From Clostridia bacterium (GTDB lineage Bacteria > Bacillota > Clostridia > Christensenellales > UBA1242): a stretch of 64,000 nt of DNA. The notes below the pieces were generated by a model. The model was not told the DNA's origin and ran no database searches. It saw only the letters and a list, made by a program, of their open reading frames with translations. Position numbers and translations under genes: made by a program. Shown here in pieces: positions 2,280 through 40,159 of this stretch; position 1 is the stretch's first letter; each line of letters starts with the position of its first letter. The stretch covers positions 9,703-73,702 of the forward strand of contig JAZUAE010000018.1 of assembly GCA_045637805.1 (NCBI GenBank). The letters are read 5' to 3'.

Positions 2280-2602
2280 ATTATTTCTCCTTTTATATTT
2301 TTAATATACAACCACAAATCGACTTTGTCAAGTAAAGAATAAAATCCCAACTTATATAAGTAAATACTATTTTTCTAAATTTCTTCCTTTTTTTTATTAT
2401 TTAACATGCTGAATAAGCAATATGCCTTACATAAACAATTGTCAAACATTAACAAATGATAAAACACGCAAATATAACTGTTAAAAAAACAATCCAGCGG
2501 ATTGTTTTCTTTACGATCTTCTCCATCATGAGTAGTTCGAGTTCTATACTTAACCAAACAAATAGTCTACTTTAAATATTAATTTTATTTTCTGATAAAT
2601 TT

Positions 2603-3850
2603 TTATCTATTTAAATTTTGTAATATTTCATTCATATTACATTCTATATAATTTTTAAATATTTCTTTAACATACCTTTCACTAAACATACAGAACGGCT
2701 TGTTTTGTAAATATTCATTTCTACATCCAAAATTGCAAAGTGGAAGCATATTACAATCTAAACATTTCTTAGGCATCTTTGGAGCACACCAACGTGCCGT
2801 ATTGTATTCATTTGTGTTGTTGTATACATCTCCCACTTTTAAGTTGTTATTTTTAATCTCTTTAGAACACTTAAACAAGTCACCATTTGGCATAATAACA
2901 AAATTAGATAAAATATATGCCGGGCATATTTTATATCTTGGTTTTAGACGATTTATAATATCATTTTGAAGACCACACTTCATTAATTTTCTTAAAATCA
3001 AAATGTCTTCCTTTTCAGAAGATACCAAATCATTATTCCTATCGTCATACATTATTTTTCTAGCTGATACAAAAACATTTTTATACTTAGAGAATTTTTC
3101 AGATAAAAAATCTATCAATTCCATCAATTCATCTAAATTATATGTATCATAGTTGAGACGTATATTTACAAAAATATTATTAGTTAGAAGTTTTTCTATA
3201 GTTCCAATAACCCTTTCAAATGCATTTGGCTCATTAAATAGTTTAACCTTTTCATAGGTCTCTTTTAAACCATCAAGCGTAATTTGTACAGTCTGCAAAT
3301 TCCACACATTTTTAGCTCTACTGATGAGTTGATCATCAAAAATATAACCATTAGATATCATTTTGCTAAAAACAGTGTAACCTTGCCCATTTAGTTTTTC
3401 ACATATATATGTGATAATATGATGATTTACTAGTGGCTCGCCACCAAACCATTCAATAGTTAAACTTTTATTTTCTTTATTTTGGTTAATTATAAAATCA
3501 CAGACCTTATCTGCTGTTTTTTCATCCATTGTTTGAACTTCAACACCCTTTTCATAGCAATAAAAACACTTAGCATTACAAGCCGTAGTAGTTAAAATTC
3601 TATAAAAAGAAGATTTATCTTCTTCAAGCACTTTTCTGCTATTGTAAAGAAACAATTCTGTTTCATCAACTTCATCTTCAACATAAAATCCCAATTCTAC
3701 AAAATTATTAAAATATGTAGAATTTGTATCCATGTTACAAAATTCAGCATAGTTTTTATCATTTAAAATAACACAAGTGTAATTTAATGAATTAAAAATT
3801 AAATTTGCACCACTATTTGAAACAATTACATTATACTTAGACTTTTTCAT
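2603..3850 (-). CDS. radical SAM/SPASM-domain peptide maturase
   Basis: CNAKCFYC (CX3CX2C) radical SAM motif. GGEPL motif. C-terminal Cys-rich SPASM-like region (CPAY...KC...CAPKMPKKCLDCNMLPLCNFGCRNE). About 85-aa N-terminal extension compatible with a peptide-recognition (RRE-like) domain. Confidence 0.9.
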   Translation of the reverse strand: MKKSKYNVIVSNSGANLIFNSLNYTCVILNDKNYAEFCNMDTNSTYFNNFVELGFYVEDEVDETELFLYNSRKVLEEDKSSFYRILTTTACNAKCFYCYEKGVEVQTMDEKTADKVCDFIINQNKENKSLTIEWFGGEPLVNHHIITYICEKLNGQGYTVFSKMISNGYIFDDQLISRAKNVWNLQTVQITLDGLKETYEKVKLFNEPNAFERVIGTIEKLLTNNIFVNIRLNYDTYNLDELMELIDFLSEKFSKYKNVFVSARKIMYDDRNNDLVSSEKEDILILRKLMKCGLQNDIINRLKPRYKICPAYILSNFVIMPNGDLFKCSKEIKNNNLKVGDVYNNTNEYNTARWCAPKMPKKCLDCNMLPLCNFGCRNEYLQNKPFCMFSERYVKEIFKNYIECNMNEILQNLNR

Positions 3851-3910
3851 ACTCTCTCCTATTAGTAAAATAAAAAAAGTCTAAAGAAAGAATCTTTAGA
3901 CCATTGCCAA

Positions 3911-4015
3911 CTAGTCGTTCATTAATTGAGAACAATCTGGACCAGAACCACCAGGGCAGTTGCAAGACATACTTACAACATGTGATAATTGCATTTTCTT
4001 TAATACAAAAAACAT
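3911..4015 (-). CDS. 34-aa Cys-rich RiPP precursor candidate MFFVLKKMQLSHVVSMSCNCPGGSGPDCSQLMND
   Basis: AGGAGG 8 nt upstream of the ATG. Lies 60 nt upstream of the rSAM/SPASM gene on the same strand. Three Cys in the C-terminal core. The ORF-track entry 3837..4052 is a different frame covering the SD. Confidence 0.6.
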   Translation of the reverse strand: MFFVLKKMQLSHVVSMSCNCPGGSGPDCSQLMND

Positions 4016-4128
4016 AACACTTACCTCCTATTTGGTATCTTAAGTTTAACATAAAAAGTCAATCTTGTAAACATTTATTTATGTAATTTCTAAAATTAAT
4101 CTTTTACAACACTAGAACGAAAATACTC

Positions 4129-4197
4129 CTAGCCATCAGTAGAATATGAAGACACATTCGCTAATTGCATTTTCTTTAATATTGAAAACTTAAACAT
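4129..4197 (-). CDS. 22-aa paralogous leader-only peptide MFKFSILKKMQLANVSSYSTDG (core lacking Cys)
   Basis: DNA and peptide similarity to the 5' half of the 3911..4015 gene (shared ...LKKMQL..V.S). Weak SD (GGAAG) with short spacing. Stop falls before any Cys. Confidence 0.3.
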   Translation of the reverse strand: MFKFSILKKMQLANVSSYSTDG

Positions 4198-4673: not shown

Positions 4674-4994
4674 CTATCTTCCGCTTCCTAAATGTCCCTT
4701 TTCTTCAAAACGTTTTTTCATTTTTTGAAGAACAATATCTAAACATTCATCAGCATAAAAATCCAACTCATCAGCAAGAGATAGAAGTGAATACAAAACA
4801 TCTCCAAATTCTTCTTTAAAGTCATCACTTAGTTTAAATTCTTCAGCACCATAGTTAGAGTTCTTTAAATATTCTTTTGCTAATTCTCCTAATTCACTTT
4901 GAATATCTGAAAGTCTAGCAAAAACAGGCATCGGATCAAAAGTCTTAATTTTATTAAATTCTTTTACTTTATTTTGCATAAGATTATCCTCCAC
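4674..4994 (-). CDS. MazG-like nucleotide pyrophosphohydrolase domain protein
   Basis: EELGELAKE and EEFGDVLYSLLSLADEL helices, typical of the MazG/all-alpha NTP-PPase fold. 106 aa. Confidence 0.7.
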   Translation of the reverse strand: MEDNLMQNKVKEFNKIKTFDPMPVFARLSDIQSELGELAKEYLKNSNYGAEEFKLSDDFKEEFGDVLYSLLSLADELDFYADECLDIVLQKMKKRFEEKGHLGSGR

Positions 4995-6372: not shown

Positions 6373-7362
6373 TTACATTTCTCTATATTGGTTTTGTTTT
6401 TTTCTATCTTTTGTCATTTGGATTTTTTTCCATTCAGGAACACCAGTCAATTCTTGTTGAATCTCTTTTCTAGATTGCTCTTTTCTCTTAAATTTTAGAT
6501 ATCTATTAAACAATGCTTCATCTAATTTTCCATTTTCTATCGCTTCACGAATTGCACACCCTTTTACACCTTCAGCATGAGTACAATGTGAAAACTTACA
6601 ATGAGATTCAAGTTCAATTATTTCTCCAAATACCTCATTAATACCTTCACTGTTTTCTTCTTTTGAAACACCAACAGCTCTAACCCCTGGTGTATCAATT
6701 ACAATTCTACCATCATCAATATAGAACAAATTTCTAGATGTTGTTGTGTGTCTACCCTTTGCATCTTTGTCTCTAATTTCCCCAGTTTTCATTAAATTTT
6801 TATTAGCCAATGCATTAATTAACGTAGATTTACCAACACCAGAACTTCCAATAAATATAGCCGTTTCACCAGGAGCCCAAAGTTTTAAAACATCATCAAC
6901 ACCATCATTTTCAATTGTACTAGTTGATACAACAGAACTGTTTGGAAACCTTGCCTTAACCACATCTTCAAACACTTCTGGCATATAACATAAATCTTTT
7001 TTTGTCAAAATAAAACAAAGTTTCGATTCTGGAATATTACCTAAAATTGCAAATCTTTCAAGTTTTCCAATGTTAAATTCATTATTCATACTACTAACAA
7101 CAAACACTACGTCAATATTTGATGCTATTTGTTGTTTTTTGCCATTATTCATTCTAAAAAGTTCATTTTTACGAGCACCTATATCTGTAATAAAATAATG
7201 GCCATACTCATCAACTCTAACGGAAATATTGTCTCCAACACAAGGCAAATCTTGGTTTTTATAAGATCTATCTAGCTGTGCATAATATACCTCACCATTA
7301 TTATTAAATTCCCACAAATTTCTTTGAACTGAACTACATTTTGCATTAAACGTATTATTCAT
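6373..7362 (-). CDS. rsgA: RsgA/YjeQ-like circularly permuted ribosome-associated GTPase
   Basis: G4 LTKKD precedes G1 GSSGVGKST and G3 DTPG (permuted order). C-terminal zinc knuckle CKFSHCTHAEGVKGC. The ATG overlaps the upstream rSAM stop (ATGAATAA). Confidence 0.85.
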   Translation of the reverse strand: MNNTFNAKCSSVQRNLWEFNNNGEVYYAQLDRSYKNQDLPCVGDNISVRVDEYGHYFITDIGARKNELFRMNNGKKQQIASNIDVVFVVSSMNNEFNIGKLERFAILGNIPESKLCFILTKKDLCYMPEVFEDVVKARFPNSSVVSTSTIENDGVDDVLKLWAPGETAIFIGSSGVGKSTLINALANKNLMKTGEIRDKDAKGRHTTTSRNLFYIDDGRIVIDTPGVRAVGVSKEENSEGINEVFGEIIELESHCKFSHCTHAEGVKGCAIREAIENGKLDEALFNRYLKFKRKEQSRKEIQQELTGVPEWKKIQMTKDRKKQNQYREM

Positions 7363-8748
7363 GTAATAATTCCCCCTTTAATTTCTTTAACAACGCTTTA
7401 CAATTAATAAAAAACTTTTTAGATTTTTCTTTCAACTCACTTCTGTTGTTAATATTAGCAACTAATAAATCTAAATAGTTGTATGGCATTGTTTTGAGCA
7501 TTATTAATGTCTGATTATCAATCAAATTTGTCGATAAGACTTTTTCAATATCATAACCAAACTCTACAAAAAACTTGGTTAGCTTTTTAAATATGAATCC
7601 AACATCTTTATTTATAAAATAATTTCGCTCATTGAACTTACCATAATCATCTTTTACTTTTGTTCCAGGATAAGCAATTACTTTTTTATAAATTAGTGTT
7701 GGATAATACCCCCATAATTCATTTTCTTTAAAAAACGATAAATTTTCTTTAACTTCGTTTATACTAGTATACCTGTCAAACATAATAAAACCAATACCTA
7801 TATTGATTTTTGATTCTCGTAACATTTTTATAGCCTTAACATTTTCTTCTACTGTCGTAAATTTTTTATATCTATTTAAAACATTATTTGAACCATTTTC
7901 AATACCAAGTTCAACCGCTGTACATCCATATTCCTTTAGCCCATTTAAGTATTCTTGCCCTGCACTAATAATCTGATTTACTCTCGTTGCGAAAGAAAAC
8001 AACAATGTTTTACCACATTTTTCCTTTATACTTTTTACAATATTTAATGCTCGATTTTTATCAACAAAAAAATTATCATCTATAAATACTAAAAAAATAT
8101 TTTTTTCTTTTTATAAATTTCATAAACTTCATCTGCTATATTTTGTGGGCTTCTGCCTCTCCATTTTAAACTCATACATGGTATTGAACAAAATGCACAC
8201 TTATATGGACAACCTCTACTTGTTGAAATGCCAACATTGATTAGTTCTTCACCTGTTTCTTTATTCTTTCTTGTTGAATATAAATGAAAAGTATCACGAG
8301 TTGGGAAAGGTAAAGAATCCAAATCATTTTCTTGATAAATTGTATTTGTAATAATAATTGAATTATTTATATTTTTATATGAAACACCTTCTAACTTTAT
8401 TGTTGGTTTGGAATTTTTTTCTAAATCTTGTAAAAGTTTAAGAAGCTGAACCTCCCCGTCACCTCGCATTGCAAAATCAAAACAATTGTATTTTCTAATT
8501 ATTTCTTCATGACAAATTGTAGAATGAACACCACCTGCTGAAATAAAAATATTTCTTTTGTATTGTTTTATTTTTTTAGCAATCTTTAACACCCTTTTAA
8601 AACAGCTAGAAAAAATAGAAAAACCAACAAAATTATACGATTTTTCTTTTATTAATTTTATTAAATCACTATCTTTAAAATTATATATAGCAGCATTACA
8701 AAAACCTTCAACAAAAACAACTTTTTCTTTTAACAATAATTCTAACAT
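7355..8748 (-). pseudogene. B12-binding-domain radical SAM enzyme, split by a 1-nt frameshift in an A7 run
   Basis: N-terminal Rossmann-like cobalamin-binding region, then CPYKCAFC. ORF 8089..8805 ends in ...YKKKKIFF*. The adjacent frame continues sensibly (KEKNIFLVFIDDNFFVDKNRALNIVKSIKEKCGKTLLFSFATR...) into ORF 7355..8005. The homopolymer is at 8100-8106. True start is ATG 8748 (AAAGGAG SD). Confidence 0.75.
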
Positions 8749-8764
8749 ATAAACTCCTTTTATT

Positions 8765-8863
8765 TTAGGTGGTTGGATTACATTCATCATCTGGATAACA
8801 TCCACTTAAACGACAAGCAGCTGCAATTCTATCAGAACTTGTAACTTTTGCAATTTTAGACAT
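8765..8863 (-). CDS. 32-aa Cys-containing RiPP precursor candidate MSKIAKVTSSDRIAAACRLSGCYPDDECNPTT
   Basis: GGAGGA 7 nt upstream of the ATG. Stop lies 16 nt before the B12-rSAM start. Three Cys in the C-terminal half. Not in the ORF track. Confidence 0.55.
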   Translation of the reverse strand: MSKIAKVTSSDRIAAACRLSGCYPDDECNPTT

Positions 8864-10186: not shown

Positions 10187-11773
10187 CTATATATTTTGAT
10201 CTAAAGCTATGCCACATTTAAACACATATGTCGCAGTATGCTTATCTTTTATGATTATTTTTTCTATCAGATTCTTACAAATTTCTTTATCGAATGTTGT
10301 GTATACACCATTTAGTACTTTGTCTATTTCTTTTATTCTATAATTTATAATACTAATATTATCCGTTTTCTTTTGGGCTATCTCTATCTTTTCTTTCAAG
10401 TCCTTTATTTGGGCTATAATTTCGCTCGATTTCGCTTGTATATCATCTGTTGCCTTACTTGTATTGATTGTAAGGTTTACAAGTTCTTCTTGCTTTTTAA
10501 TAAGGTTATTTTGCATCGATTCAAGAGTTTCTATATCTGGCACATTTATAACTGTATTAATATTATTTTTTACCTTTTCTATAATATCTTTTCGATTTGA
10601 TGTCAATACTTGCAAAGCTTCAATAAATCCTTGTTCCAATAGATTCTCTTTTATAGGTTTCATTGAACATGCATTTTTGTCTTTTTGATGCTTTGTACAT
10701 ACCCATATTGGAACTTTTTTACTATGGTCTATACTCCATTGTGAATGTCTGCGAAATTTTGCACCACATTCTCCACACTCAACAATTGAGCTAAATGCAT
10801 AATCGTTAGTGTACACCCCAAATCCGTCATCTTCGCTTTTAAGTTCTTCACGCCTTTTAAGTTCTATTTGTACTGCATCAAAATCTTCTTTACTAATAAT
10901 CGCCAAGTGATGACCAGTTACATAATATTGTGGCTTAAATCCTTCATTCTTTTTCCTTTCACAAAGTATGTCTGGCTTGTATGTTTTTTGGAGTAATAAA
11001 TCGCCCTTATATTTCTCGTTGGTTAAAATATTGATTATTGTGTTTACATACCATTTAGTTTTTCCATAAGGTGTTTTTATTTCATCTTTTTCAAGTTCTT
11101 TCTTAATTGCTCTAATCGTATTACCTCTGAGATATGATTCAAATATCCTACGAACAATCACAGCTTCTTTTTCTACTATTTTAAAACCATCTTTGGTATT
11201 GTACCCGAATATTCTACCACTACCAACATACTCTCCTTTCTCAAATTTCTTTTGATGAGACCAAGTAATGTTGTGGGATATTGTTCTGCTTTCTTCTTCA
11301 GCAATGGAGGCCATTATTCCTAGCAATAAGAAGGAGTTTGGATCTGCCGTATCAATATTTGTAGTTTCAAAGAGTATTGTAACACCTCTATCTTTTAACT
11401 CTTGTGCTATTGTTAAGCATTCCCCCGCATTCCTGGCAAATCTTTGTACTGATTTAGTTATAATTCTTGTTATTTTACCATTTCGACAATCATCAATCAT
11501 TTCTAGAAATTTCTTTCTTTTTCTCATTTTTGTTCCAGTAATACCCTCATCAGCATATAAGCCAACATAAACGATACCCTTATCACTACTTAATTTTTTA
11601 TTATAATACTCACACTGAACTTTATAACTATTTAGTTGGTCCTCATTATCCGTACTAACCCTAGCATATGCACAAACTCTAGGTTTATTTGCTAACATAT
11701 TTATTGTTCCACCAACCATTTTCTGCCTTGCAGGAATAACTCTAATAGTTCTTGCAGTACTTTCTATGTTCAT
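10187..11773 (-). CDS. large serine recombinase (528 aa)
   Basis: N-terminal resolvase domain with AYARVST (catalytic Ser). Recombinase domain. Zinc ribbon CGECGAKFRRH...C. C-terminal coiled coil. Confidence 0.9.
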   Translation of the reverse strand: MNIESTARTIRVIPARQKMVGGTINMLANKPRVCAYARVSTDNEDQLNSYKVQCEYYNKKLSSDKGIVYVGLYADEGITGTKMRKRKKFLEMIDDCRNGKITRIITKSVQRFARNAGECLTIAQELKDRGVTILFETTNIDTADPNSFLLLGIMASIAEEESRTISHNITWSHQKKFEKGEYVGSGRIFGYNTKDGFKIVEKEAVIVRRIFESYLRGNTIRAIKKELEKDEIKTPYGKTKWYVNTIINILTNEKYKGDLLLQKTYKPDILCERKKNEGFKPQYYVTGHHLAIISKEDFDAVQIELKRREELKSEDDGFGVYTNDYAFSSIVECGECGAKFRRHSQWSIDHSKKVPIWVCTKHQKDKNACSMKPIKENLLEQGFIEALQVLTSNRKDIIEKVKNNINTVINVPDIETLESMQNNLIKKQEELVNLTINTSKATDDIQAKSSEIIAQIKDLKEKIEIAQKKTDNISIINYRIKEIDKVLNGVYTTFDKEICKNLIEKIIIKDKHTATYVFKCGIALDQNI

Positions 11774-13223
11774 ATTTATACTCCTTCTTTATGCATTGCT
11801 GATTTTTAAAAATGATATCTATTTTATAATCTGTAATAATTATTTTTTCTATATGTTTCTCCACAATTTCATCGGTAAACTCTTTTGCTTTACATTTAGG
11901 TTTTTTATAAACACTTAATAAATTATAATTACGTAATTTTTCAATTAATTCTGATTGTTCTTTTGTTTTCTTATCAACCTCTAGTTTATATTGACCATAT
12001 GTTATTAATTTGTCTATGTACAATCTTTTAATCTTATCAATAATGTTTTGAATTTCTCTTATTTTCTGTTTTAATTCGTTATTGTTAGGTAACTCGTATG
12101 GAATATCTACGTATTCATTATAAGCATCAAATATGATCTCATTTAATAGATCCTGAGGAATGTCAATCGCCGAACAAGCACATTTACCATGCCTTTCTTT
12201 GTTTATACATATCCATTGTCTATTATCACAATTTACAATGCGCTTATTAATTCGGTGTCTGAATGTATTTCCACACTTCCCACATTTAATCTTCCCTGAC
12301 AGCGAGTACCTTCTTTTTTCTTGCATTTTATTGCCGGTTGCCTTTCGAGTTCTTTCCAACATTATTTTATTAACAGAATTAAAAGTTTCTCTATCTATTA
12401 TTGCTTCATGATTATTGGTTATGTAATACTGCTCTAATTGCCCCTTGTTTTTTTGTTTACGGCCATTATCGTAAAATTCTTTTTGCAATAAAGCATCTCC
12501 AATATATTTTTCGTTTCTTAATATTCTTTGCACTGTTGTGTTTCGCCAAACTTCCTTTCCTGTACATGTTGGAATTTTAAGTTTTGTTAATTGATTTGCT
12601 ATGCCTTCTATTCCATATCCCTTTAAGTATAATGTAAAAATCAATCTAACAATCTTAGCTTCTTCTTTATTTATTACCATTTGATTTTCTTCATTAAAAT
12701 CATAACCAAAGATTTGGGTTTTGGGAACAATCCCTTTTTTAAAATTATTTCGTGCTGTAAATTGCACATTTTTACTCATAGTTCTCAATTCCTGTTCCCC
12801 TAATATTGCCTTTAGGTTCATTAATAAATCCATAGAACATGTTAATGTATTTATGTTTTCTTCATCAAAAATTATTGCAACACCTTTCTCTCTGAGAGTT
12901 TTAATTACATCCATAGTTTCTTTACTATTGCGACCAAACCTATAAATACTTTTTGTATAAATTTCTTTTATAAATCCAGCCATCGCTAGCTCAATCATTT
13001 TGACATACTCTTTTCTTTGTATTACCTTATGTCCACTTATACCTTGATCTGCAAACACTCCACAGAATTTCCTGTTTGACAATGTTTGGAGTTTTTCTGT
13101 CCAATAAGAATCCTGCATTAAAAAACTTGATTCTTGCTCTTCTTTCATAGTACTTACTCTTACATAAGCACAACATGGAATTTCTTGATCCTTACTTGAA
13201 TCTATTCGTTGTATTTTTGCCAA
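11742..13223 (-). CDS. large serine recombinase (493 aa)
   Basis: AYVRVST catalytic motif. Recombinase domain. Zinc ribbon CGKCGNTFRHR. 32-nt overlap with the downstream recombinase gene. Confidence 0.9.
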   Translation of the reverse strand: MAKIQRIDSSKDQEIPCCAYVRVSTMKEEQESSFLMQDSYWTEKLQTLSNRKFCGVFADQGISGHKVIQRKEYVKMIELAMAGFIKEIYTKSIYRFGRNSKETMDVIKTLREKGVAIIFDEENINTLTCSMDLLMNLKAILGEQELRTMSKNVQFTARNNFKKGIVPKTQIFGYDFNEENQMVINKEEAKIVRLIFTLYLKGYGIEGIANQLTKLKIPTCTGKEVWRNTTVQRILRNEKYIGDALLQKEFYDNGRKQKNKGQLEQYYITNNHEAIIDRETFNSVNKIMLERTRKATGNKMQEKRRYSLSGKIKCGKCGNTFRHRINKRIVNCDNRQWICINKERHGKCACSAIDIPQDLLNEIIFDAYNEYVDIPYELPNNNELKQKIREIQNIIDKIKRLYIDKLITYGQYKLEVDKKTKEQSELIEKLRNYNLLSVYKKPKCKAKEFTDEIVEKHIEKIIITDYKIDIIFKNQQCIKKEYKYEHRKYCKNY

Positions 13224-14051: not shown

Positions 14052-15707
14052 CTATTCCACATTTATATTTGAAGCATTTACCAATGTAAATTTCGTTGTT
14101 CCATTTAACATATTATTAATTTGTGTTTGTAAATTTTCTCTCTCATTGGTTGCTTCATTTAATTGAGTATTAAAAGTTGTAGTTAAATTATTTATAGCCT
14201 GTTGTACAGAACTATCTATTAATTCTTTCAATACTTTTCCTTGCTTTGCTGATAAAACATATGCAGAATTTTCAGACTCCAAATTATCTACAATTGTTAC
14301 TCCAGCATCTGTGCCTTTTAATGCAATCAATCCCCAATAATCATTTTCTGCACTATCTGATGGTTTTTGGTTTATGTTTGTTTTTTTACAATAATAAGTA
14401 CAACCAAAAATACTAACTGTATCAATAAAATATTCATTGTTCAAATATTCTGTGCTAGCATCCCAACCACCCATGGCTCGATACGACTTTCCTTGTTTAG
14501 GCTCTGGAATATTAAAATGAATATTTTTTCTTTTTGTTATTTCATTAGTTTCAATATTGACACTTACATGCTCAGTACAATCAATTTCTGAACTTGAGAC
14601 CGTTAAATTTTCAACAATATCAAGTGCTGTTGATGATTTATTATTTGCAGTTTCAGCTGTAGAAACGGCATTTTCTGATTTATCATTAGCAATATTTGCA
14701 GCATTCACTGCATTAGTTGCACTTGTATTTGCATTATTTGCTGTCATAACTGCGTTATTTGATTTTTCATTTGAAAAATTCGCAATATCATTTGATTCTT
14801 GAGCAATTTCTTTAGATTCCGAAGCTAATGCAACTGCATTATCCGATTTTTCATTTGCATTATTTGATGTTTGGACTGCATTGTTTGACTTTTTATCTGC
14901 ACTATTTGCAATTTCTAGTGCATCTTCAGAGTTACTAAGTGCTACATTTGCAGTATTTACAGCATCTATTGATTTACTATTTGCTGTATTTGATGTTTCT
15001 ACCGCCCTATCAGCTTTTTCATTAGCACTATTCGACACCTGCTCAGCATATTCCGCACTATTTTGAGCAGCCAATGCACTATTTTCTGCATTTTTTGCCT
15101 TTATGTTTGCAGAGTCTGCACTATTTTGAGCAGCCAATGCACTATTTTCTGCATTTTTTGCACTATCTTCTGCATTAATGGCTGATTTTTCTGCATCATC
15201 TGCTCTCTTTTGAGCATCTTCAGAGTTAGCTAAAGATTCTCGTGATAACTCTAAAGATAAATTTGCATATTCGTATGCTTGAATTATAAGATCTGGATTT
15301 TCTGAACTTTCTTTTTTAACATACATTATTGAATCTTCAATAATAATTTTAAACAATTTAAATGGCACAAAAGTTTCTGTGTTGTCTGCTAGATATGCAA
15401 TAAATTGAATTTGCAATTCCCCCTTAATCGTTACTGCCGTAGGCAAAGTAAAAGCAAAGTTTAATTTATCAAAATCTTCGCCATAGTTTTTTGTTTCATC
15501 TTCAGGTGTATATAACCCTATGCTCCACTTTTCATTTCTTATATTTTTAAAGTCTACTCGTTTTGAAAAGTCTTTATATTCTTCTGGGAAATGCACAAGG
15601 ATTGTTGTGGCATTATTTTCGCCAGAAATAATTTCATATTCTTCTTTATTTTCAGCAACATATTGCTTGTTTCTTTTTAGTGTTATTTCTATTCCTTGCA
15701 TATTCAT
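14052..15707 (-). CDS. tail fibre protein with Ala/Asn/Ser-rich periodic repeats
   Basis: 551 aa. Central region (about aa 160-365) consists of xAxNSAxxA-type repeats, including a duplicated KNAENSALAAQNSA. Last large gene of the tail module. Confidence 0.55.
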   Translation of the reverse strand: MNMQGIEITLKRNKQYVAENKEEYEIISGENNATTILVHFPEEYKDFSKRVDFKNIRNEKWSIGLYTPEDETKNYGEDFDKLNFAFTLPTAVTIKGELQIQFIAYLADNTETFVPFKLFKIIIEDSIMYVKKESSENPDLIIQAYEYANLSLELSRESLANSEDAQKRADDAEKSAINAEDSAKNAENSALAAQNSADSANIKAKNAENSALAAQNSAEYAEQVSNSANEKADRAVETSNTANSKSIDAVNTANVALSNSEDALEIANSADKKSNNAVQTSNNANEKSDNAVALASESKEIAQESNDIANFSNEKSNNAVMTANNANTSATNAVNAANIANDKSENAVSTAETANNKSSTALDIVENLTVSSSEIDCTEHVSVNIETNEITKRKNIHFNIPEPKQGKSYRAMGGWDASTEYLNNEYFIDTVSIFGCTYYCKKTNINQKPSDSAENDYWGLIALKGTDAGVTIVDNLESENSAYVLSAKQGKVLKELIDSSVQQAINNLTTTFNTQLNEATNERENLQTQINNMLNGTTKFTLVNASNINVE

Positions 15708-16715: not shown

Positions 16716-17788
16716 TAGCTTTTCCTCCTATATCTTCTATCATTATATATTTTCATTCTATCTGTGAAATCAATTCTTGTTTTACCAAAAACACACGTGT
16801 AGTATGGATCATTCATTGTGTATTTTAATCCAGTGAATATTGATTGATATTCTCTGTTCTCATACACTATTGTGACCTTATCTCCATATCGGAAGTTCTT
16901 ACACTTAACCATCGTTTGTGTTTTCGCCAACTTGTATAGAATACAGTGGTTGAAAATATTTCCGCAAAGTTCACTCTTTGCTTTCTCTTCCATTGTGTAG
17001 CCTTCTTTTACTGCATCTGTTGCATCCCACTCCACATACTTTGTTTGAATAGGCATTATTCTCTTTGAATCATTTACATTTGTAGTTACTTGGTTATTTT
17101 CAAGCAAATAGTATGTTCCTTGCTCAACTCCTGTGTCAGCATTATAAAAAACGACCTTATTATAGGTCGGCATATCATTGTTATCAAATTGTGGTTTTGA
17201 TAGTTTTATATTGTCCTTTATAATGTACCCTTCGGTTGAGTTCTTTGCTATCATACACACTATTGTATTGCTCACAAAGTTTATTGAAAAATCTAAATAA
17301 ATATTGTAAGTGTCAAACATCCAATCTATGAAATCTGCTAGATTGATTGTATCTTCATCATCACTATACACACAACTATATTCGCTACCAAATGTCCTTA
17401 TTTCTAGTGGTAGTTTCTTTTGTACATCTACTGTGTCAATAAAAGCATATGTGAGTATTGTTTTTAATCCTTGCACCCCATCAAACTTTCTTCCAAGCAA
17501 ACTGGTATATTTGAAGACATTGATTACTGTGTCATTGAATAACTCTTTCATATGTTTGAACGAGATCTTTTGTTCTGTGTTATCGATGGAAGTTATGACT
17601 CCAAGTTCTACTAGTTTATTTCCATTTATGAGTGCAATAATGTCGCCTTTGAACCCCATTGAAGTGTCAATAATTGATGCTGTGCTAGTGTTGTTAGATA
17701 TTATGTCATAGTCAATCGAATAGTCCTTTACAACTCCACCATCAATGTATTGCAAGGTGTTTCTCGCATAAATTCTATAATGAACCAT
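16715..17788 (-). CDS. tail-associated (Tal-position) protein
   Basis: Synteny: follows the Dit-position gene downstream of the tape measure. ATGA-type junctions at both ends. Confidence 0.4.
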   Translation of the reverse strand: MVHYRIYARNTLQYIDGGVVKDYSIDYDIISNNTSTASIIDTSMGFKGDIIALINGNKLVELGVITSIDNTEQKISFKHMKELFNDTVINVFKYTSLLGRKFDGVQGLKTILTYAFIDTVDVQKKLPLEIRTFGSEYSCVYSDDEDTINLADFIDWMFDTYNIYLDFSINFVSNTIVCMIAKNSTEGYIIKDNIKLSKPQFDNNDMPTYNKVVFYNADTGVEQGTYYLLENNQVTTNVNDSKRIMPIQTKYVEWDATDAVKEGYTMEEKAKSELCGNIFNHCILYKLAKTQTMVKCKNFRYGDKVTIVYENREYQSIFTGLKYTMNDPYYTCVFGKTRIDFTDRMKIYNDRRYRRKS

Positions 17789-18684
17789 TACACCAACTCC
17801 TTTTGTATTGAATAACTAATCGTTACTTTACCAAAGTCGGTATTGACTGCTGAGAATACTAGTGTTGATTTTCCAGATGGTATTGTTAGAAAGTTTGAGT
17901 AAGTATAGTCCTTTTCGCCTATATAATAAACATCTTCACGGATGTATTCTCCGTCAACTAGTGTGTATAAACTTGCTTCTTGCTTATTTGGACTACTATC
18001 AATTTGCAAGAAACTATTTTCTTTTACTATTAAGTTGTATTTGGCTTGGTCTAGTATTTGCCCATCTTGAATAATTCTTATAAAGGGTGTATCGGTTACA
18101 GCTTCTACCTTTATAACGCAACTTGTTGGTAGGTTTCCTTCATTGTCTATGTCTACAGCAAGGTTATTACTACCACCATAGTAGTATGGATAGTAGTATG
18201 GATATACGAGTGGTTCTCCATATCTACTTAATTCTAGGACTATTTGTTTGTCTTTTTTCCACCTTGATAGGCAAGCAAATTTTACTTCGCATTTTAGGAA
18301 ACCTGTTTTATAATCGATTTCACTTTTCTTTAATTCGTTTATTAGCACCAACTTATACCATTCGCTTTCTAATGAATTGTCGTGTGAGTGTCCATTTATT
18401 GAGTAGTAAAGTTTCATTGGCGTTTTTGTGTTTATGTTTCCTACGAAGTTCACGAATGCTGTGAAGTGATTATAATCTGAAAAATACAAGTCGCCTACTA
18501 TTGTTTGCGATTGTGTTTCTACTTCTTCTATAAAGCAAGTATTCTCTACTTCGTATGATGTTATTTTTGTTTTTATACCAAAGCCTTCCGGTTCTCCGAA
18601 GAAACTACTTCTTTTGTCGTATGGGTTCTTGGGAGTTAGATTCCAGATTTTGCCTTTTTCATTTTCTAGCCAAAACTTTCTCAC
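17788..18684 (-). CDS. distal tail protein (Dit-position)
   Basis: Immediately downstream of the tape measure with an overlapping stop/start. 298 aa. Confidence 0.5.
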   Translation of the reverse strand: MRKFWLENEKGKIWNLTPKNPYDKRSSFFGEPEGFGIKTKITSYEVENTCFIEEVETQSQTIVGDLYFSDYNHFTAFVNFVGNINTKTPMKLYYSINGHSHDNSLESEWYKLVLINELKKSEIDYKTGFLKCEVKFACLSRWKKDKQIVLELSRYGEPLVYPYYYPYYYGGSNNLAVDIDNEGNLPTSCVIKVEAVTDTPFIRIIQDGQILDQAKYNLIVKENSFLQIDSSPNKQEASLYTLVDGEYIREDVYYIGEKDYTYSNFLTIPSGKSTLVFSAVNTDFGKVTISYSIQKELV

Positions 18685-23526: not shown

Positions 23527-24855
23527 TTATTTTCTTTTAGCCAATGCTACAAATGGTGATACTGTTGCACTACCTTTATATGGTTGAAGCGCTTTGTTCC
23601 AAACTGGTTGTCCATCAACCCTATAAATGAAACGGAATACATTTTCATCATAAAGGAAGCGAACATGAATTGATGATGTTGCATTGATGCCACCTTTATC
23701 AATTAAAATGTATTGGCTAAAGTCTGCAAGGATGATATCTCCTACTTCGCCAAGTTCAGAGCATTGTTCAAGTGGCATAACTGGTCTGCCGAACAATGTG
23801 CCATATGGAGCTTCGCTCAAACCACCTGCTGGGATATACACTGGTTTATCTCCAACTCTAAGTGTGTAAAGCAATGGTTCAATTTCTGGGTTAATGTACC
23901 ATACTGAGTTTGCTCTTGATCTTGACCACAATCTAGCCCACATTTTAACAAGGTTTTCTACTGTGATGATTTCAGTTTGGTCTTTCTCTTTCTCAACTTT
24001 TACAAGTGAACCTGCATTAAGGATTCCAAGTGGTTGACCTGCACCTGTTCCGCTAAGGATTGCATCATCAATTTTGAAGCCAAATTCTTCAGCAAATGCT
24101 TCACGAATAACATTTTCAAGTGCTGATGCATCTTGCAATAATTCATCTGTCACATAGCAAAGACCTGTAAGTTTCTTCAATGACAAATCCATAGTTCTAA
24201 ATCTTGGTTTTGATGCTGTGATTTTATCAGCTTCGTTTTCCCAATAAGTTTGAACACCACCCCATCTTGAACCATTTGCTCTTGAATCTTCATCAATTGC
24301 ATTGATTTTAATTCCGTTAGCATTTGTTGAAAGTGGGATTTTCTTTACCTTTGATGCAAGGATACCTGTTTCATACGTTCTTTTCAAAAGTTCTGCAACA
24401 AAATCTTTTTGCACTAAAAAACCACCATCGCTTGGGTTTGTTTCGTTCAAACCGCTTGCTGACCTGGTGGTTAATCTTCTATCAATTTTACCTGCTGGTG
24501 TTGATGCACGATATACTGCCATCATTTGTTCGCCTAAGGTACGGAATTTTCTTTCTTCATTTTTCTCTGGATTATCTTTCACTACTTCTGTTTCATCTGG
24601 TTCGCCTGCACTATCATTTTTAGTGTCTGCATCTTCTTTCTTTTCTGGCTTGCTTTCTTCTTCAAAATCGCCTTTGAAAACTTCAAGTCTTACAATCTGT
24701 TTTTCCCAATTTCGCATTTCAGTTTCTAATCTTGTAAGTTCTTTGTTCTCATCTTCTGTTAGGAATCTATCTTCCTTTTCTGCTTGCTCAATAATTTGGA
24801 TTGCCTTTAATCTGCAATCATTTTTTCTAGCTTTAAGTTCTTTCAATGTTCTCAT
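23527..24855 (-). CDS. major capsid protein, HK97-like
   Basis: 442 aa. N-terminal coiled-coil delta-like region followed by a capsid fold region. Follows the prohead protease. Confidence 0.85.
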   Translation of the reverse strand: MRTLKELKARKNDCRLKAIQIIEQAEKEDRFLTEDENKELTRLETEMRNWEKQIVRLEVFKGDFEEESKPEKKEDADTKNDSAGEPDETEVVKDNPEKNEERKFRTLGEQMMAVYRASTPAGKIDRRLTTRSASGLNETNPSDGGFLVQKDFVAELLKRTYETGILASKVKKIPLSTNANGIKINAIDEDSRANGSRWGGVQTYWENEADKITASKPRFRTMDLSLKKLTGLCYVTDELLQDASALENVIREAFAEEFGFKIDDAILSGTGAGQPLGILNAGSLVKVEKEKDQTEIITVENLVKMWARLWSRSRANSVWYINPEIEPLLYTLRVGDKPVYIPAGGLSEAPYGTLFGRPVMPLEQCSELGEVGDIILADFSQYILIDKGGINATSSIHVRFLYDENVFRFIYRVDGQPVWNKALQPYKGSATVSPFVALAKRK

Positions 24856-24858
24856 TTA

Positions 24859-25509
24859 CTAATCTCCCATAAATTTTAATTTTTGTTTTTGCATCTCCAA
24901 CTTTCTTTTGTTGGTTTCCTTGCTTTTTGCCACTTCGGATTGGTGGGTTCTTATAACATCAACCAATGAGCGAACACCACATTCAGTCTGTGCGTATGCT
25001 GGGAAAGTCACAGGACTTACATCATATAGTTTCACTTTTAATAGTTCACGAACATCGATGTTGTCCTCATAACTCCATCGGTCTAGTATTACTGTGAAAC
25101 CAAACGACATTTGTGTTATATCGCCACGCTTGATGCTTACAAGTAAGTCTTTTGCCCATTGTGTATCTGGTGGTACTATTCTCACTTTTAGACCTTTCTC
25201 ATCTTCTTCAAGTGTGAGTGTGCCAGCCTTGTTTCTACCAAGGACATAGTTTGGATCGTGATTAAACAATGCTCTTATGTCATCGTTTTGAATTGTTTCT
25301 TCAAAAGCACCTTTCACAACCCTTTCTCTAAATGGCGAATTGCCACCTAGTTCTTCGCTCCAACTATCAAAAACCGATGCATAGCCTTCGATTGCTGGTT
25401 CTGTTAGAGGATCGACATTTGCCTCAACAACTCTTAATTCTTTAAGTGTTATCGTTCTTCTCTCAAACAGGTTTTTCTCCATTGCTTTGGTCATTATTGC
25501 CTCCTTCAT
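24859..25509 (-). CDS. prohead (HK97-family) maturation protease
   Basis: IEGYASVFDSWSEEL...VVKGAFEETI...LFNHDPNYVLG pattern. Lies between portal and capsid. The true start is probably an internal Met, since the ORF overlaps the portal gene. Confidence 0.8.
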   Translation of the reverse strand: MKEAIMTKAMEKNLFERRTITLKELRVVEANVDPLTEPAIEGYASVFDSWSEELGGNSPFRERVVKGAFEETIQNDDIRALFNHDPNYVLGRNKAGTLTLEEDEKGLKVRIVPPDTQWAKDLLVSIKRGDITQMSFGFTVILDRWSYEDNIDVRELLKVKLYDVSPVTFPAYAQTECGVRSLVDVIRTHQSEVAKSKETNKRKLEMQKQKLKFMGD

Positions 25510-26734
25510 TTATTTCATTTTTTGCACCTCCTGCTGCGATTGCCGAAATCATGTTTCCGTTTAGCAAATACAAATCGCCACCTTGCTCTTTTGGAATTTT
25601 GTTCATATCTTCCAAAGCACGAATTTCGTTAGCACTCATCCAGCCATTTTGTCTGGCGATTGCATACCCATTCATTCGTGTAGCAAAGTCGCCACGCATC
25701 AATCCGTCTACATTGAATTTTGCATAGTATATGGTTCTTTCTTCATCTGTAAGTAGCGACCTTGCAATGGCTTGTTCCCAGCGAACCAACCAAGGTCTTA
25801 TTGTATGAACCACAAAATCTATGGATTGATGCTCAATATTACTAAAAGTGCTACGTGATAGGTCGCCTATCATATGTGGTGGCACTCTGAAAATTCTGCA
25901 AATTTCAGTCAATTGAAATGACCTTGTTTGCAAAAATTGACTATCTTCTGGACTCATACCAATCTCATGATATTTCATCCCTTCTTCAAGAACCGCCACC
26001 TTATGTGAGTTGGCTGTTCCCTGATATACCTTGTTCCAACTATCTCTCAGTTTTTCTGGATCTTTGACCACTCCTGGATGTTCAAGCACACCACCTGGTC
26101 TTGCTCCATTTCCAAAAAACCTTGCGCCAAATTCTTCTGTTGCTAGTGCTAGCCCCATAGCTTCCCTAGCATAGGTTATTGGACTCACTCCTAATACTCC
26201 GTCAAATGAAAAAGCAGGTATATGTAGTACCTGCTTTGGAGTGTATGTTGTTGTTATTCCTTTATTGTTTGTGTAAATGTATTTTATTTTGTTTGTGACC
26301 GCATCCCTTTCCACTTTCATATTCTTGCTTTTAAGTGGGTATAGTTCTACGATTTGCCCTAGTTTATTTCTCTTGATCAACGAATAAGCATTTCCCCAAA
26401 GTAGCAAGTTTGTCATCAGCATTTCCCTATAAGTGAAACTCGACATTTCGCTATTTGGTGCATCTTTTAACAATGTAAACAATGGATGCTGTTTTGCTTT
26501 TTCGCTATCGCCATTGGTTAGTTCTTTTAATAGGTTTAATGGCAAACTTGCCACTGTTTCACTTATCACTTTTACACAAGCATATACTGCTGAGATTTTA
26601 AGTGCTGTTTCTTCATCAACATCTACACCACTATTACTCAAATGCCCTGTGTCGATATCAACACCTTTTATGAAGTCAGCAGTTTTTTGGTCAAGGTTTC
26701 TTTGCTCTTTCTTTTTGCGATTAAATAACCCCAT
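25463..26734 (-). CDS. portal protein, HK97 family
   Basis: 423 aa. NPLFTLLKDAPN...LLWGNAY...ELYPL pattern. Lies downstream of TerL. Confidence 0.9.
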   Translation of the reverse strand: MGLFNRKKKEQRNLDQKTADFIKGVDIDTGHLSNSGVDVDEETALKISAVYACVKVISETVASLPLNLLKELTNGDSEKAKQHPLFTLLKDAPNSEMSSFTYREMLMTNLLLWGNAYSLIKRNKLGQIVELYPLKSKNMKVERDAVTNKIKYIYTNNKGITTTYTPKQVLHIPAFSFDGVLGVSPITYAREAMGLALATEEFGARFFGNGARPGGVLEHPGVVKDPEKLRDSWNKVYQGTANSHKVAVLEEGMKYHEIGMSPEDSQFLQTRSFQLTEICRIFRVPPHMIGDLSRSTFSNIEHQSIDFVVHTIRPWLVRWEQAIARSLLTDEERTIYYAKFNVDGLMRGDFATRMNGYAIARQNGWMSANEIRALEDMNKIPKEQGGDLYLLNGNMISAIAAGGAKNEINEGGNNDQSNGEKPV

Positions 26735-26742
26735 TTCTGCTC

Positions 26743-28305
26743 CTATAAAATAATAATTCCTCTTTCATTGTAGACACTTTCTTGTTGGCCTCCGTGTCTT
26801 ATTGCTCGGTCTAGTGCCATTATAAGTGCTATCGCACCGTCAATCTTTTCGGTTGACTTTTCTTTATCTGGTTTTATATTCCCTGCTGGATCGGTTTTGA
26901 TATAAATATTATCGACCATCCACTCCAGCACCTCATTTCCACCATGTGCTATCTTTTTCTCAAGCACAAGCTTCATAAGTTCCTTACTTGGTGGACTCAT
27001 ATCCTTGTATCCTTGACCGAAAGGAACAATTGTGAATCCCATACTTTCTAAGTTTTGTACCATTTGAACTGCTCCCCATCTGTCATATGCTATTTCTTTA
27101 ATGTTGTATTGTGTGCCAAGTTCTTCAATGAACTTTTCAATAAATCCATAATGAACAACATTACCTTCTGTTGTCATTATTAGTCCTTTTGCTTTCCAGG
27201 TATCATATGGTACATGGTCACGACGAACTCTTAGTTCTAGTGTTTCTTCTGGCAACCAAAAAAATGGCAGCACTTCATACTTGCCATCTTCATCTTCTGG
27301 TGGGAATACAAGCACAAATGCTGTGATGTCTGTTGTGCTACTAAGGTCTAGTCCACCATAACAAACACGACCTTTTAGTCGCTCTTTATCTACTGCATAC
27401 GAACACAAATTCCATTTATCCATAGGCATCCAACGAATTGATTGTTTTACCCATTGATTTAGTCGTAGTTGTCTGAATAGGTTTTCTTCTGCTGGATTTT
27501 CCTTTGCATTGTTGAATGCTGCTCTTATCTTGTCTATGTCTACTGTTATATCCAAACTTGGATTTGCTTTGTACCAATTTTTCTCATCTGTCCAATCATC
27601 TTCATCTTTAATTCCATAAATAACGGGATAAAATGTTGGATCATGTTTTTTACCATTTATCACATCTTCTGCTTTTCTATGGACTTCATAGCAAATGCTG
27701 TTTCTATCAGTTCCTGCTGTTGTTATCAAAAAATACAAAGGTTGCTTTCTTGCATCTCCAGAACCTGTGAGCATAACATCGTATAATGCTCTATTTGGTT
27801 GTGCATGGAGTTCATCAAATATAACTCCGTGTACATTCAATCCGTGTTTTGTGTATGATTCAGCTGATAGCACTTGATAGAACGATTTTAGCGGCAAATA
27901 CACAATTCTCTTTTGACTGGCTAGTATCTTGCATCTTTTCTTTAATGCAGGACACTGATTTATCATTTCCACTGCAACATCAAATACAATTGATGCCTGT
28001 TGTCTATCAGCAGCACATCCATAAACTTCCGCACCGTATTCCCCATCTCCACAAGTGAGATATAAAGCAACAGCCGCCGCCAATTCGCTTTTCCCTTGTT
28101 TCTTTGGGATCTCAATGTATGCTGTATTATATTGTCTATATCCATTTGGTTTTAATGTTCCAAATAAATCTCTTACAATTTTATCTTGCCAAGGTAGTAG
28201 TTCAAAGTTTTTCCCGTACCAAACACCCTTGGTATGCTTAAGGGAATTGATAAAGGCAACTGCTCTGTCGGCAAGTGCTTGACCTTTTTGTTCAATTTCG
28301 TTCAC
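26743..28305 (-). CDS. terminase large subunit
   Basis: IPKKQGKSELAA Walker-A-like motif. DELH Walker B. C-terminal nuclease region. 520 aa. Confidence 0.9.
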   Translation of the reverse strand: MNEIEQKGQALADRAVAFINSLKHTKGVWYGKNFELLPWQDKIVRDLFGTLKPNGYRQYNTAYIEIPKKQGKSELAAAVALYLTCGDGEYGAEVYGCAADRQQASIVFDVAVEMINQCPALKKRCKILASQKRIVYLPLKSFYQVLSAESYTKHGLNVHGVIFDELHAQPNRALYDVMLTGSGDARKQPLYFLITTAGTDRNSICYEVHRKAEDVINGKKHDPTFYPVIYGIKDEDDWTDEKNWYKANPSLDITVDIDKIRAAFNNAKENPAEENLFRQLRLNQWVKQSIRWMPMDKWNLCSYAVDKERLKGRVCYGGLDLSSTTDITAFVLVFPPEDEDGKYEVLPFFWLPEETLELRVRRDHVPYDTWKAKGLIMTTEGNVVHYGFIEKFIEELGTQYNIKEIAYDRWGAVQMVQNLESMGFTIVPFGQGYKDMSPPSKELMKLVLEKKIAHGGNEVLEWMVDNIYIKTDPAGNIKPDKEKSTEKIDGAIALIMALDRAIRHGGQQESVYNERGIIIL

Positions 28306-31488: not shown

Positions 31489-31622
31489 AAAAACCCATCG
31501 CTACCGATGGGCTAAAATTCGAATATAGGAATTACCATCGGTCAGCCTTTAGCACCTTAGCATCGCCAGGTTGCTGTGTGGTCATAGGGGCTGTCCCTCG
31601 CACACTCTTTATGGATGCTTTC
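31489..31622 (-). promoter_or_regulatory. SAM-I (S-box) riboswitch with intrinsic terminator, 5' of metK
   Basis: Minus strand reads ...CCATAAAGAG..GAGGGACAGCCCCTATGA..CAGCAACC..AGGTGCTAAAGGCTGACCGATGG. Then the terminator CCCATCGgtagCGATGGG+TTTTT. CCGATGG can alternatively pair with CCATCGG (antiterminator logic). TATAAT box at 31624-31629. Confidence 0.8.
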
Positions 31623-39721: not shown

Positions 39722-40159
39722 CTAATTCTTTTTGACTCTGATTGATTGTTTTTCGAATGTGTTTATTAAGCCTTCCATCCAATCTGGCAACACTCCATCG
39801 TTCTCTTTTTTGCTTTCTCTTACAAAGCCACTAAGTGTGTTTGCATTGATTGTGAAAAGGTTTTCGTATCCACGCTCTTTGAATCGCTTGTACAATTCTT
39901 CTTTTGTTTCTGGGTTCGCTGACTCAAATTCTCTACTTACCATTGAGAACAACACACCATTTCTTTTGAAACTATCTATTTCGCTGTCTGTCATTCTCTG
40001 GATTAGTTCAATTTCTATCTGTTCCAGCAACTTTGAAACATCTTTAAGTTCCTGCTCTAATCCTTGCTTCTTATCTCTTGTCGCAAGGTATTGGTCGGAC
40101 AATGTGAAAAGTTCATTATTTTCCATAATCTCTCCTATTGATTGAACAAACTTCGCCAA
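39722..40159 (-). CDS. coiled-coil replication-module protein (Gp157-like position)
   Basis: 145 aa, helical. Overlaps the SNF2 gene end. The antisense ORF 39732..40145 is low-complexity and rejected. Confidence 0.45.
   Translation of the reverse strand: MAKFVQSIGEIMENNELFTLSDQYLATRDKKQGLEQELKDVSKLLEQIEIELIQRMTDSEIDSFKRNGVLFSMVSREFESANPETKEELYKRFKERGYENLFTINANTLSGFVRESKKENDGVLPDWMEGLINTFEKQSIRVKKN

Follow-up and report, generated by a model that had tools for sequence, protein, structure and literature searches.

In a 64,000-nucleotide stretch of contig JAZUAE010000018.1 from a Clostridia bacterium (assembly GCA_045637805.1; the whole stretch is hereafter called the window), a gene for a 34-residue peptide with three Cys residues lies directly upstream of a gene for a radical S-adenosylmethionine (SAM)/SPASM enzyme of 415 residues. 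We consider it likely that the two genes form a self-contained cassette for a peptide synthesized on the ribosome and modified post-translationally (RiPP), bearing Cys thioether bonds. It is very probable that the locus represents a conventional, though small and so far undescribed, gene pair for a modified peptide. The precursor family is recorded neither in Pfam and NCBIfam nor in the literature searched, and the pair lies outside the curated families.

A short reading frame conserved beside the maturase gene

A preliminary description of the window, made from its sequence, had proposed a 34-codon open reading frame (ORF) with an AGGAGG Shine-Dalgarno sequence 60 nt upstream of the radical SAM/SPASM gene. 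Both are present at that place (MFFVLKKMQLSHVVSMSCNCPGGSGPDCSQLMND), and the gap between the end of the ORF and the maturase ATG is exactly 60 nt. The same description had doubted that a 71-codon frame running across the Shine-Dalgarno sequence (3837-4052, minus strand) and overlapping the precursor in a different frame was a gene. We also rejected the 71-codon frame, because it is interrupted by stop codons in the related loci L088 and L089 and the 34-codon frame is conserved. In two other loci (L093 and L094), the frame of the 71-codon type has no stop and continues in frame into the maturase gene, and one gene caller reported a 470-residue fusion (P0122, from L093), which is an artefact of the open frame. 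This fusion swallows the precursor gene and exemplifies how annotation pipelines may lose such a peptide.

We fetched the genomic contexts of the closest of 671 detectable maturase homologues. At least eight unrelated genomic contexts have one to four genes for related peptides next to a maturase homologue (42-88% identity). In a close relative (L091-L094; 88% maturase identity, about 91% identity of the intergenic DNA), two intact genes for 34-residue peptides lie upstream of the maturase gene, encoding MFLVLKKMQLANASSASSNSADDLGYSCSSVVKD (Shine-Dalgarno sequence TAGGAGGG) and MFFVLKKMKLAHVVSMSCNCPGGSGDDCSQLKND. L081 (78%) has a called 34-codon gene 56 nt upstream (MFFVLPKMQLAQVVSMSCNTPGGSGDNCSQILND), L088 (53%) encodes MIVVIDKKPLEAIACYECNTPGGNGPNCSQILND, and L089 (53%) encodes MTIILDAISIYDIACFSCNCPGGDGSNCSQLLND together with a shorter MTIILDAISIDDDDGCICSQLFSD, both downstream of the enzyme gene. 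Four tandem copies of the pattern MKIVKD...CNNHSGC...C.S.V.[DNE] were found in L084 (50%), and one related peptide each in L086 (45%), L001 (44%) and L175 (42%). A frameshifted copy is present in L177 (44%; positions 4829-4947), where the precursor is split into MIMKIIKDVKIKTKICTACNNYTG and CGSDSDNPCSGSITG; the split may stem from an error of assembly or mark a further precursor gene in decay. Lack of conservation beside homologous maturases had been named in the preliminary description as an observation that would speak against the peptide gene, and the opposite was found. The precursor frame is open in all relatives with the peptide, and the conserved tail CSQILND is written in differing synonymous codons.

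The identical 34-residue sequence had also been called as a protein on an NCBI-sourced contig represented in the protein collection, and its orthologues are called as genes in JGI/ENA assemblies. When a hidden Markov model (HMM) of the peptide was run against all stop-to-stop segments of 178 loci and the window, only family peptides were recovered; the matches in the window were the 34-codon ORF (2.5e-19) and a 22-codon ORF farther upstream (0.03). The profile search that the preliminary description had suggested returned, from 1.84 billion representative proteins, only 11 small relatives (34-52 residues) and one repetitive match of 910 residues, none of them named. Among 12 family peptides, there was no credible match in Pfam and no match in NCBIfam, and the core motifs (CNNHTGC, CSQILND and others) are absent from the literature searched, in line with the earlier view that the core belongs to no recognized family. 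Because the peptides adjoin homologous maturases in at least eight contexts and the alternative frames are broken in distant relatives, comparison of these loci identifies the small ORF as a genuine gene.

The family is rare: its peptides fall into about 11 clusters at 50% identity, and only metagenome-derived, low-GC (28-41%) contigs carry maturase relatives of at least 42% identity. In a scan of metagenome contigs, the matches listed held only relatives of 43% identity or less and no additional close ones. The flanking genes are unlike in every lineage: HIT/MazG and ABC-F genes in the window, ftsY-ffh in L086, the dcw cluster in L084, rpsB-tsf in L175 and ctsR-clpC in L177. Among the neighbours of the fetched loci, no gene for a protease, an exporter or immunity is common to several contexts; an ABC exporter gene 5.4 kb away (L081) and an M16 peptidase gene 2.9 kb away (L091) are each confined to a single lineage. 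Since the flanks differ in each lineage and no protease, exporter or immunity gene is shared, the mobile or heritable unit is the peptide gene or genes plus the enzyme gene alone. The product is more likely a physiological or signalling peptide like SCIFF, or a peptide released by general machinery, than a classical bacteriocin, because none of these three kinds of gene accompanies the cassette.

Two tandem maturase homologues (426 and 410 residues, 42-43% identity to the window enzyme) occur in Lachnospira metagenome-assembled genomes (L002/L003, 5000-7610) and are followed by a different 35-residue peptide rich in Cys, Gly and Asp, MVVIKGTTSEEQVGACYLGGGSCGPDSDDHDGSCK. The wider enzyme family (30-37% identity) pairs with several other types of Cys-rich peptide, including MEFF...CxCDDQGCQGxCHxCDN, ...DDDCCCCSGGYSK, KKFEKPxxEVVxL... 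in Bacteroidales and ...DVITTS...C... in Oscillospirales.

Conserved features of the peptide

The last Cys is located exactly six residues before the C terminus in all 22 family peptides, whose tails follow the consensus C[SGTI]xx[VILMH]x[DNEHG]. An alignment of 20 sequences shows C28 without exception and C18, N19 and G23 in at least 90%. The residue preceding C28 (C18+9) is Asp or Asn in the subfamily of the window peptide, and the larger subfamily has an additional G-C-x-x-D motif. All three Cys residues that the preliminary description had noted beside the SPASM enzyme are present, but only C18 and C28 are conserved in relatives; in L081 and L088, Thr takes the place of Cys20. The upstream copy in L091 and the short one in L089 (L089_2) are reduced paralogues that retain only the leader and the C-x5-D tail, and the C-terminal Cys is therefore the residue to which the comparison points as the core modification site. 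The leader at the N terminus is hydrophobic and basic, beginning with MKI[IV]KD... or MFFVLKKM....

A CteB-like maturase outside the curated families

Radical SAM enzymes bind the [4Fe-4S] cluster that coordinates SAM through a CX3CX2C motif in a partial TIM barrel. The corresponding C91-x3-C95-x2-C98 is invariant in 35 of 35 homologues, and the enzyme matches the Pfam family Radical_SAM (PF04055) with 45 bits against a cut-off of 29.5, together with Fer4_12. SPASM domains are recognized by seven Cys residues for two auxiliary clusters in the pattern CX9-15GX4C...CX2CX5CX3C...C; here, C309-x13-G323-x4-C328, C363-x2-C366-x5-C372-x3-C376 and C387 are invariant or nearly so among the 35 homologues. 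An extra eighth Cys, C355, is invariant in the close clade. The AlphaFold2 model (pLDDT 93, pTM 0.89) consists of an N-terminal domain of three strands and three helices (residues 7-77), the barrel core and a helical C-terminal domain. RiPP maturases that depend on a RiPP recognition element (RRE) have a PqqD-like winged-helix element, N-terminal or separate, and a cognate precursor gene nearby. The window enzyme has a predicted RRE-like N-terminal domain, and a precursor gene is adjacent to the maturase gene in at least eight lineages.

A Foldseek search of the PDB with the model ranked CteB first, followed by TigE and SuiB, all three of them RiPP maturases that bear an RRE, with full-length matches that include the N-terminal domain; anSME came after these, ChlB was another strong fold match and SkfB was also among the matches. 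The family profile also matched CteB best (7.5e-30) among PDB sequences, with anSME second (1.3e-16) in a match that begins only at residue 90. The fold alignment covers the SPASM domains of both CteB and anSME. Six residues of CteB in catalytic proximity, F112, F152, T186, S210, H363 and Q364, correspond to Y99, F135, I165, T191, S329 and K330 in the window enzyme.

Among the NCBIfam models, those of CefB (Cys-every-fifth; 164.9 bits, cut-off 600), TIGR04463 (149.7, cut-off 525), Clo7bot (134.2, cut-off 600) and geopeptide maturases (118.5, cut-off 400) gave the best matches, all over approximately residues 1-400. The PapB family (NF047865) followed with a partial match of 95.5 bits against a cut-off of 340 (residues 85-379), which leaves the enzyme outside that family. 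All five pair with Cys-rich peptides. The SCIFF maturase (TIGR03974; 50.9 bits, cut-off 425), anSME (TIGR03942; 45.3, cut-off 349) and prokaryotic viperin (41.5, cut-off 180) scored at the background level for the shared core, so that the enzyme belongs to none of these families, and the pVip match in PADLOC (47 bits) covers the generic radical SAM core only (residues 88-241). No sulfatase gene was found among the neighbouring genes. The readings as a sulfatase maturase, a viperin or a defence gene were rejected on the curated scores and the domain content; grouping with SPASM enzymes that do not act on RiPPs had been named earlier as a result that would undermine the proposal, and the enzyme groups with RiPP maturases instead. 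From the Cys motifs, the ranking by fold and profile, and the NCBIfam scores below cut-off, the enzyme is a predicted CteB-like RRE-radical SAM-SPASM peptide maturase without a curated equivalog.

The second rank of anSME in the PDB sequence search (1e-16) could be taken to mean that the small ORF arose by chance or encodes a regulatory leader and that the enzyme acts on a protein or small molecule, as sulfatase maturases and QhpD do. We regard this as extremely improbable. Amino-acid conservation beside enzymes of 42-88% identity in at least eight contexts, strong Shine-Dalgarno sequences, tandem copies and the downstream placement in L089 argue against it, as do the synonymous codon turnover in the tail and the stop codons in alternative frames. 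In addition, the anSME score in NCBIfam is far below its cut-off, the enzyme has the RRE-like N-terminal domain, and neither sulfatase nor QhpA/C genes were found nearby.

Proposed cross-linking chemistry and its alternatives

Radical SAM/SPASM enzymes generate a 5'-deoxyadenosyl radical that abstracts hydrogen from a peptide, and in sactipeptides and ranthipeptides a Cys thioether is formed; the sulfur is joined to an alpha-carbon in sactipeptides and to a non-alpha (beta or gamma) carbon in ranthipeptides (PMC10114670). PapB joins Cys to the carbon that lies alpha to the carboxylate in the side chain of Asp or Glu and, in vitro, also uses the C-terminal carboxylate (PMC12373016). The preliminary description had considered thioether chemistry of the sactipeptide or ranthipeptide type to fit the locus, and we infer such cross-linking as well from the sequences of the peptide and enzyme.

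In the mechanism that we propose, a hairpin between the two genes would pass only part of the transcription into the enzyme gene, so that the precursor would exceed the enzyme. The RRE-like domain would bind the short hydrophobic/basic leader (MFFVLKKMQL...), and the 5'-deoxyadenosyl radical produced at the SAM cluster would remove a hydrogen from one of the core residues, the acceptor. The carbon radical would then be captured by a Cys sulfur at an auxiliary cluster, closing an intramolecular thioether. With two conserved Cys residues, two rings would be expected. The better-defined one would be a C-terminal macrocycle from Cys28 to the C-terminal residue or to one within the last six, probably attached at a carbon beside a carboxylate or amide, that is, at the side chain of a terminal Asp, Asn or Glu or at the C-terminal carboxylate, as in PapB. 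Cys18, in the motif C-N-x-x-x-G...D/N, would make the second ring. Because the distance from Cys to the end is fixed while the last residue varies, the free C terminus or its neighbourhood is an attractive candidate for a recognition element.

The closest described systems share parts of this picture. As in CteB with thermocellin (CteA) and in SCIFF (ScfA/ScfB, Tte1186), an RRE, a radical SAM and a SPASM domain are combined with a short Cys-containing precursor encoded immediately upstream, and, like SCIFF, the window has a minimal pair of peptide and maturase among housekeeping genes, with no protease, exporter or immunity gene of its own. Both the sequence profile and the fold make CteB the best match to the window enzyme among solved structures. 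Unlike SCIFF, which has six Cys residues in about 45, the window-type precursor has two or three (three in 34 residues for the window peptide) and does not qualify as a SCIFF. It also differs from SCIFF and thermocellin in its much shorter leader, its invariant C-x5-COOH tail and the lack of any NCBIfam precursor match. PapB with freyrasin (PapA) resembles the pair in the partial match to NF047865 and in having Cys at a fixed distance before Asp, Asn, Glu or the C terminus; PapA, however, has six CX3D repeats, whereas here a single C-x5-terminus occurs with C-N-x3-G, and C-x-x-D in the sister subfamily. The maturases CefB, TIGR04463, Clo7bot and geopeptide are likewise radical SAM/SPASM enzymes with Cys-rich peptides, but the window enzyme is three- to fourfold under their cut-offs and the window peptides match none of their precursor models. 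With anSME, the enzyme has the radical SAM and SPASM core in common; anSME lacks a counterpart of the N-terminal RRE-like domain, and the window enzyme has a cognate small peptide and no sulfatase neighbour.

The same pairing could install sactionine bonds (sulfur to alpha-carbon), which would make the product a sactipeptide. Sactisynthases share the RRE-radical SAM-SPASM/twitch architecture, and SkfB is among the PDB matches; moreover, sactisynthases are paraphyletic (PMC10288494), and full-length similarity separates them only unreliably from ranthisynthases (PMC10288494). We nevertheless think this outcome unlikely, as ranthipeptide enzymes are the nearest relatives both among curated families (PapB, 95 bits) and among solved structures (CteB), and the conserved core positions are rich in Asp and Asn (C-N, D/N27, terminal D/N/E, and C-x-x-D in the larger subfamily), which recalls the CX3D and NxxC logic of PapA. 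The hairpin-type layout, in which N-terminal Cys residues face C-terminal acceptors, is also absent.

Alternatively, the peptide could be the substrate of a modification other than a thioether, such as epimerization, a C-C or C-O cross-link or oxidation, with the Cys residues serving as metal or cluster ligands or forming disulfides. SuiB, which makes a Lys-Trp C-C bond, TigE and ChlB are strong fold matches, the enzyme falls in no curated equivalog, and reviews stress the open reaction scope of radical SAM-SPASM enzymes (PMC10114670). This alternative appears quite unlikely in view of the invariance of Cys28, the only invariant core residue, and the near invariance of C18. The family conserves no aromatic, Lys/Arg or Val/Ile-repeat residues as used in cyclophane, ether and cyclopropyl chemistries, and the five best NCBIfam matches all pair with Cys-rich peptides.

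Several observations weigh against a thioether-forming cassette with the layout and C-terminal ring proposed here. The maturase is far under every curated cut-off (165 versus 600 bits at best), its identity to CteB is only about 18%, and the reactions of radical SAM/SPASM relatives of similar fold include C-C, C-O and other modifications. Pfam reported no match to its SPASM model at E <= 0.01, so the SPASM assignment relies on the Cys motif and the fold. With about 13-16 residues, the leader is unusually short, and a cleavage site is not apparent. The last residue varies among D, N, E, H and G, and a side-chain acceptor at that position is thus not obligatory. Finally, L175, with a gap of 15 nt between precursor and enzyme genes, has no hairpin, and the putative attenuator is not universal.

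A narrower proposal than a thioether cassette is that the pair is the founding member of a RiPP family that is not yet described, from uncultured bacteria of low GC content, in which a thioether macrocycle links the invariant Cys at position -7 to the C-terminal residue, at a carbon of either its side chain or the free carboxylate. We put this forward tentatively, as possible rather than probable. If true, the C-terminal ring would be the natural counterpart of a macrocyclization so far seen only as in-vitro promiscuity of PapB.

A decayed second precursor gene

The preliminary description had also pointed out a second copy of the leader about 115 nt further upstream and interpreted it as a truncated, leader-only paralogue. 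A 22-codon ORF (MFKFSILKKMQLANVSSYSTDG) is indeed present, 113 nt upstream of the 34-codon ORF, but alignment of the DNA with L091 shows it to be the counterpart of the first intact gene of that locus and not a leader-only paralogue. Relative to the L091 orthologue, the Shine-Dalgarno sequence has changed from AGGAGG to AGGAAG and the ancestral ATG to AAG, a 9-nt deletion and an in-frame TAG have appeared, and a Cys codon has changed from TGT to CGT. The new ATG of the 22-codon ORF is only 2 nt past the degraded Shine-Dalgarno sequence, and beyond the stop the ancestral C terminus is still legible in frame (...EYFRSSVVKD*). The duplicated DNA segment noted earlier is real: the 20-mer TAATTGCATTTTCTTTAATA occurs exactly twice in the 64 kb, against a chance expectation of 0.02 and two matches in 0 of 100 shuffles.

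Some RiPP enzymes can be activated by leader peptides given in trans, and the 22-codon ORF retains the leader motif ILKKMQL and an ATG, so that it might function as a leader-only decoy or a regulator of the maturase. Such a function seems very improbable to us, given that the same locus in a close relative encodes an intact 34-residue peptide with a strong Shine-Dalgarno sequence and that the window copy has accumulated five independent lesions, with the new start codon next to the degraded Shine-Dalgarno sequence and the C-terminal remnant readable after the stop. A leader-only ORF was found in no other lineage by the HMM scan of 178 loci. Based on the intact orthologue in L091 and the five lesions, the alignment identifies the 22-codon ORF as a recently decayed second precursor gene and not as the gene of a functional leader-only peptide. 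The pseudogene, the four tandem genes of L084 and the reduced paralogues illustrate how the precursor repertoire turns over around a fixed maturase.

Organization of the two-gene unit

The features of the cassette and of the neighbouring region are listed in Table 1. The promoter block upstream of the precursor is conserved in L091, and L081 has an equivalent TTGACA...TAAACT. A hairpin followed by a U-run occurs at the same position between precursor and maturase genes in L091, L081, L088, L086, L084 and L001, with unrelated primary sequences and z-scores of -1.7 to -6.7. This layout would match the common RiPP arrangement in which precursor transcripts are abundant and only some transcription reads through to the enzyme gene. 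The hairpin downstream of the maturase gene is likely the terminator of the two-gene unit. A 60-codon ORF in this region (2375-2557) was judged spurious, as it starts with TTG, has no family match and is crossed by the terminator hairpin.

Table 1. Positions of features in the window
Feature	Position	Strand	Remarks
Radical SAM/SPASM peptide maturase gene	2603-3850	-	415 residues; N-terminal RRE-like winged-helix domain (about residues 1-80), radical SAM core, SPASM
Precursor peptide gene	3911-4015	-	34 residues; short N-terminal leader and core (C18-N19, G23, D/N27, C28, C-x5-COOH tail)
Shine-Dalgarno sequence of precursor, AGGAGG	4024-4029	-	8 nt 5' of the ATG; kept in relatives
Sigma-70-like promoter, TTTACA-17-(TG)TAAACT	4043-4071	-	TTTACA-17-TGTTAAACT; consensus match only; directly upstream of precursor
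Stem-loop, 10 bp, with T7 run	3868-3902	-	Between precursor and maturase genes; putative partial terminator (attenuator)
Shine-Dalgarno sequence of maturase, AGGAGAG	3854-3860	-	Read from sequence
Hairpin with T-run	2481-2511	-	About 95 nt past the maturase stop; -14.7 kcal/mol, z = -3.0
Strong promoter-like site	2303-2331		For the following gene
Pseudogene of second precursor	4096-4197	-	22-codon ORF at 4129-4197; in-frame remnant ends at 4096
20-nt repeat, copy 1	3986-4005	+	Exact; minus strand encodes ILKKMQL/VLKKMQL
20-nt repeat, copy 2	4162-4181	+	Exact; within the pseudogene
Serine recombinases, large, two adjacent	10187-11773, 11742-13223		Prophage-like block
Tail fibre	14052-15707		Prophage-like block
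Dit	17788-18684		Prophage-like block
Capsid	23527-24855		Prophage-like block
Portal	25463-26734		Prophage-like block
TerL	26743-28305		Prophage-like block
Primase/helicase	36946-38997		Prophage-like block
SNF2 helicase	40135-41508		Prophage-like block

Other features of the window

A prophage-like block occupies 9500-45000 on the minus strand, starting about 5.6 kb from the cassette. Inside it, a SAM-I riboswitch (31492-31617, minus strand; 61 bits) lies upstream of metK, the gene for SAM synthetase (30361-31446), which may be a phage-borne, riboswitch-controlled copy. The two are flanked by a ParB-N6/N4 methylase gene (28941-30326) and a C5 cytosine methylase gene (31638-32981). Between 45198 and 51769 on the minus strand, three ORFs follow one another, for a protein with a PAPS-reductase domain (555 residues), a UvrD-like helicase (660 residues) and a product of 961 residues without a Pfam match; where the phage-like region ends, the trio may form a module for defence or DNA modification. 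Nearly all genes of the window are on the minus strand, and among the very few on the plus strand is a 2047-residue ORF with RHS repeats of the polymorphic-toxin type (53457-59600). A frameshift at an A-run (...EIYKKKKIFF* / ...KEKNIFLVFIDDNFF...) divides the gene for a B12-binding radical SAM protein (7355-8805, minus strand) into the ORFs 8805-8089 and 8005-7355; either the sequence contains an error, the gene is a pseudogene or the run is a slippery homopolymer.

Implications

Radical SAM thioether ligases are wanted as tools for making cyclic peptides that are stable to reduction. If confirmed, the pair would add to these enzymes a compact, easily expressed system (34 and 415 residues) with a sharply defined substrate rule, a leader plus Cys-x5-C-terminus. 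Genome mining often yields such pairs, and the strict C-terminal rule offers a directly testable hypothesis. The biological role of RiPP pairs free of export and immunity genes is still poorly understood, and the pair described here would, if confirmed, be a second example, besides SCIFF, of such a pair among core genes. A pair without a transporter, set among core housekeeping genes, points to a physiological or signalling role like that of SCIFF and not to that of an antibiotic.

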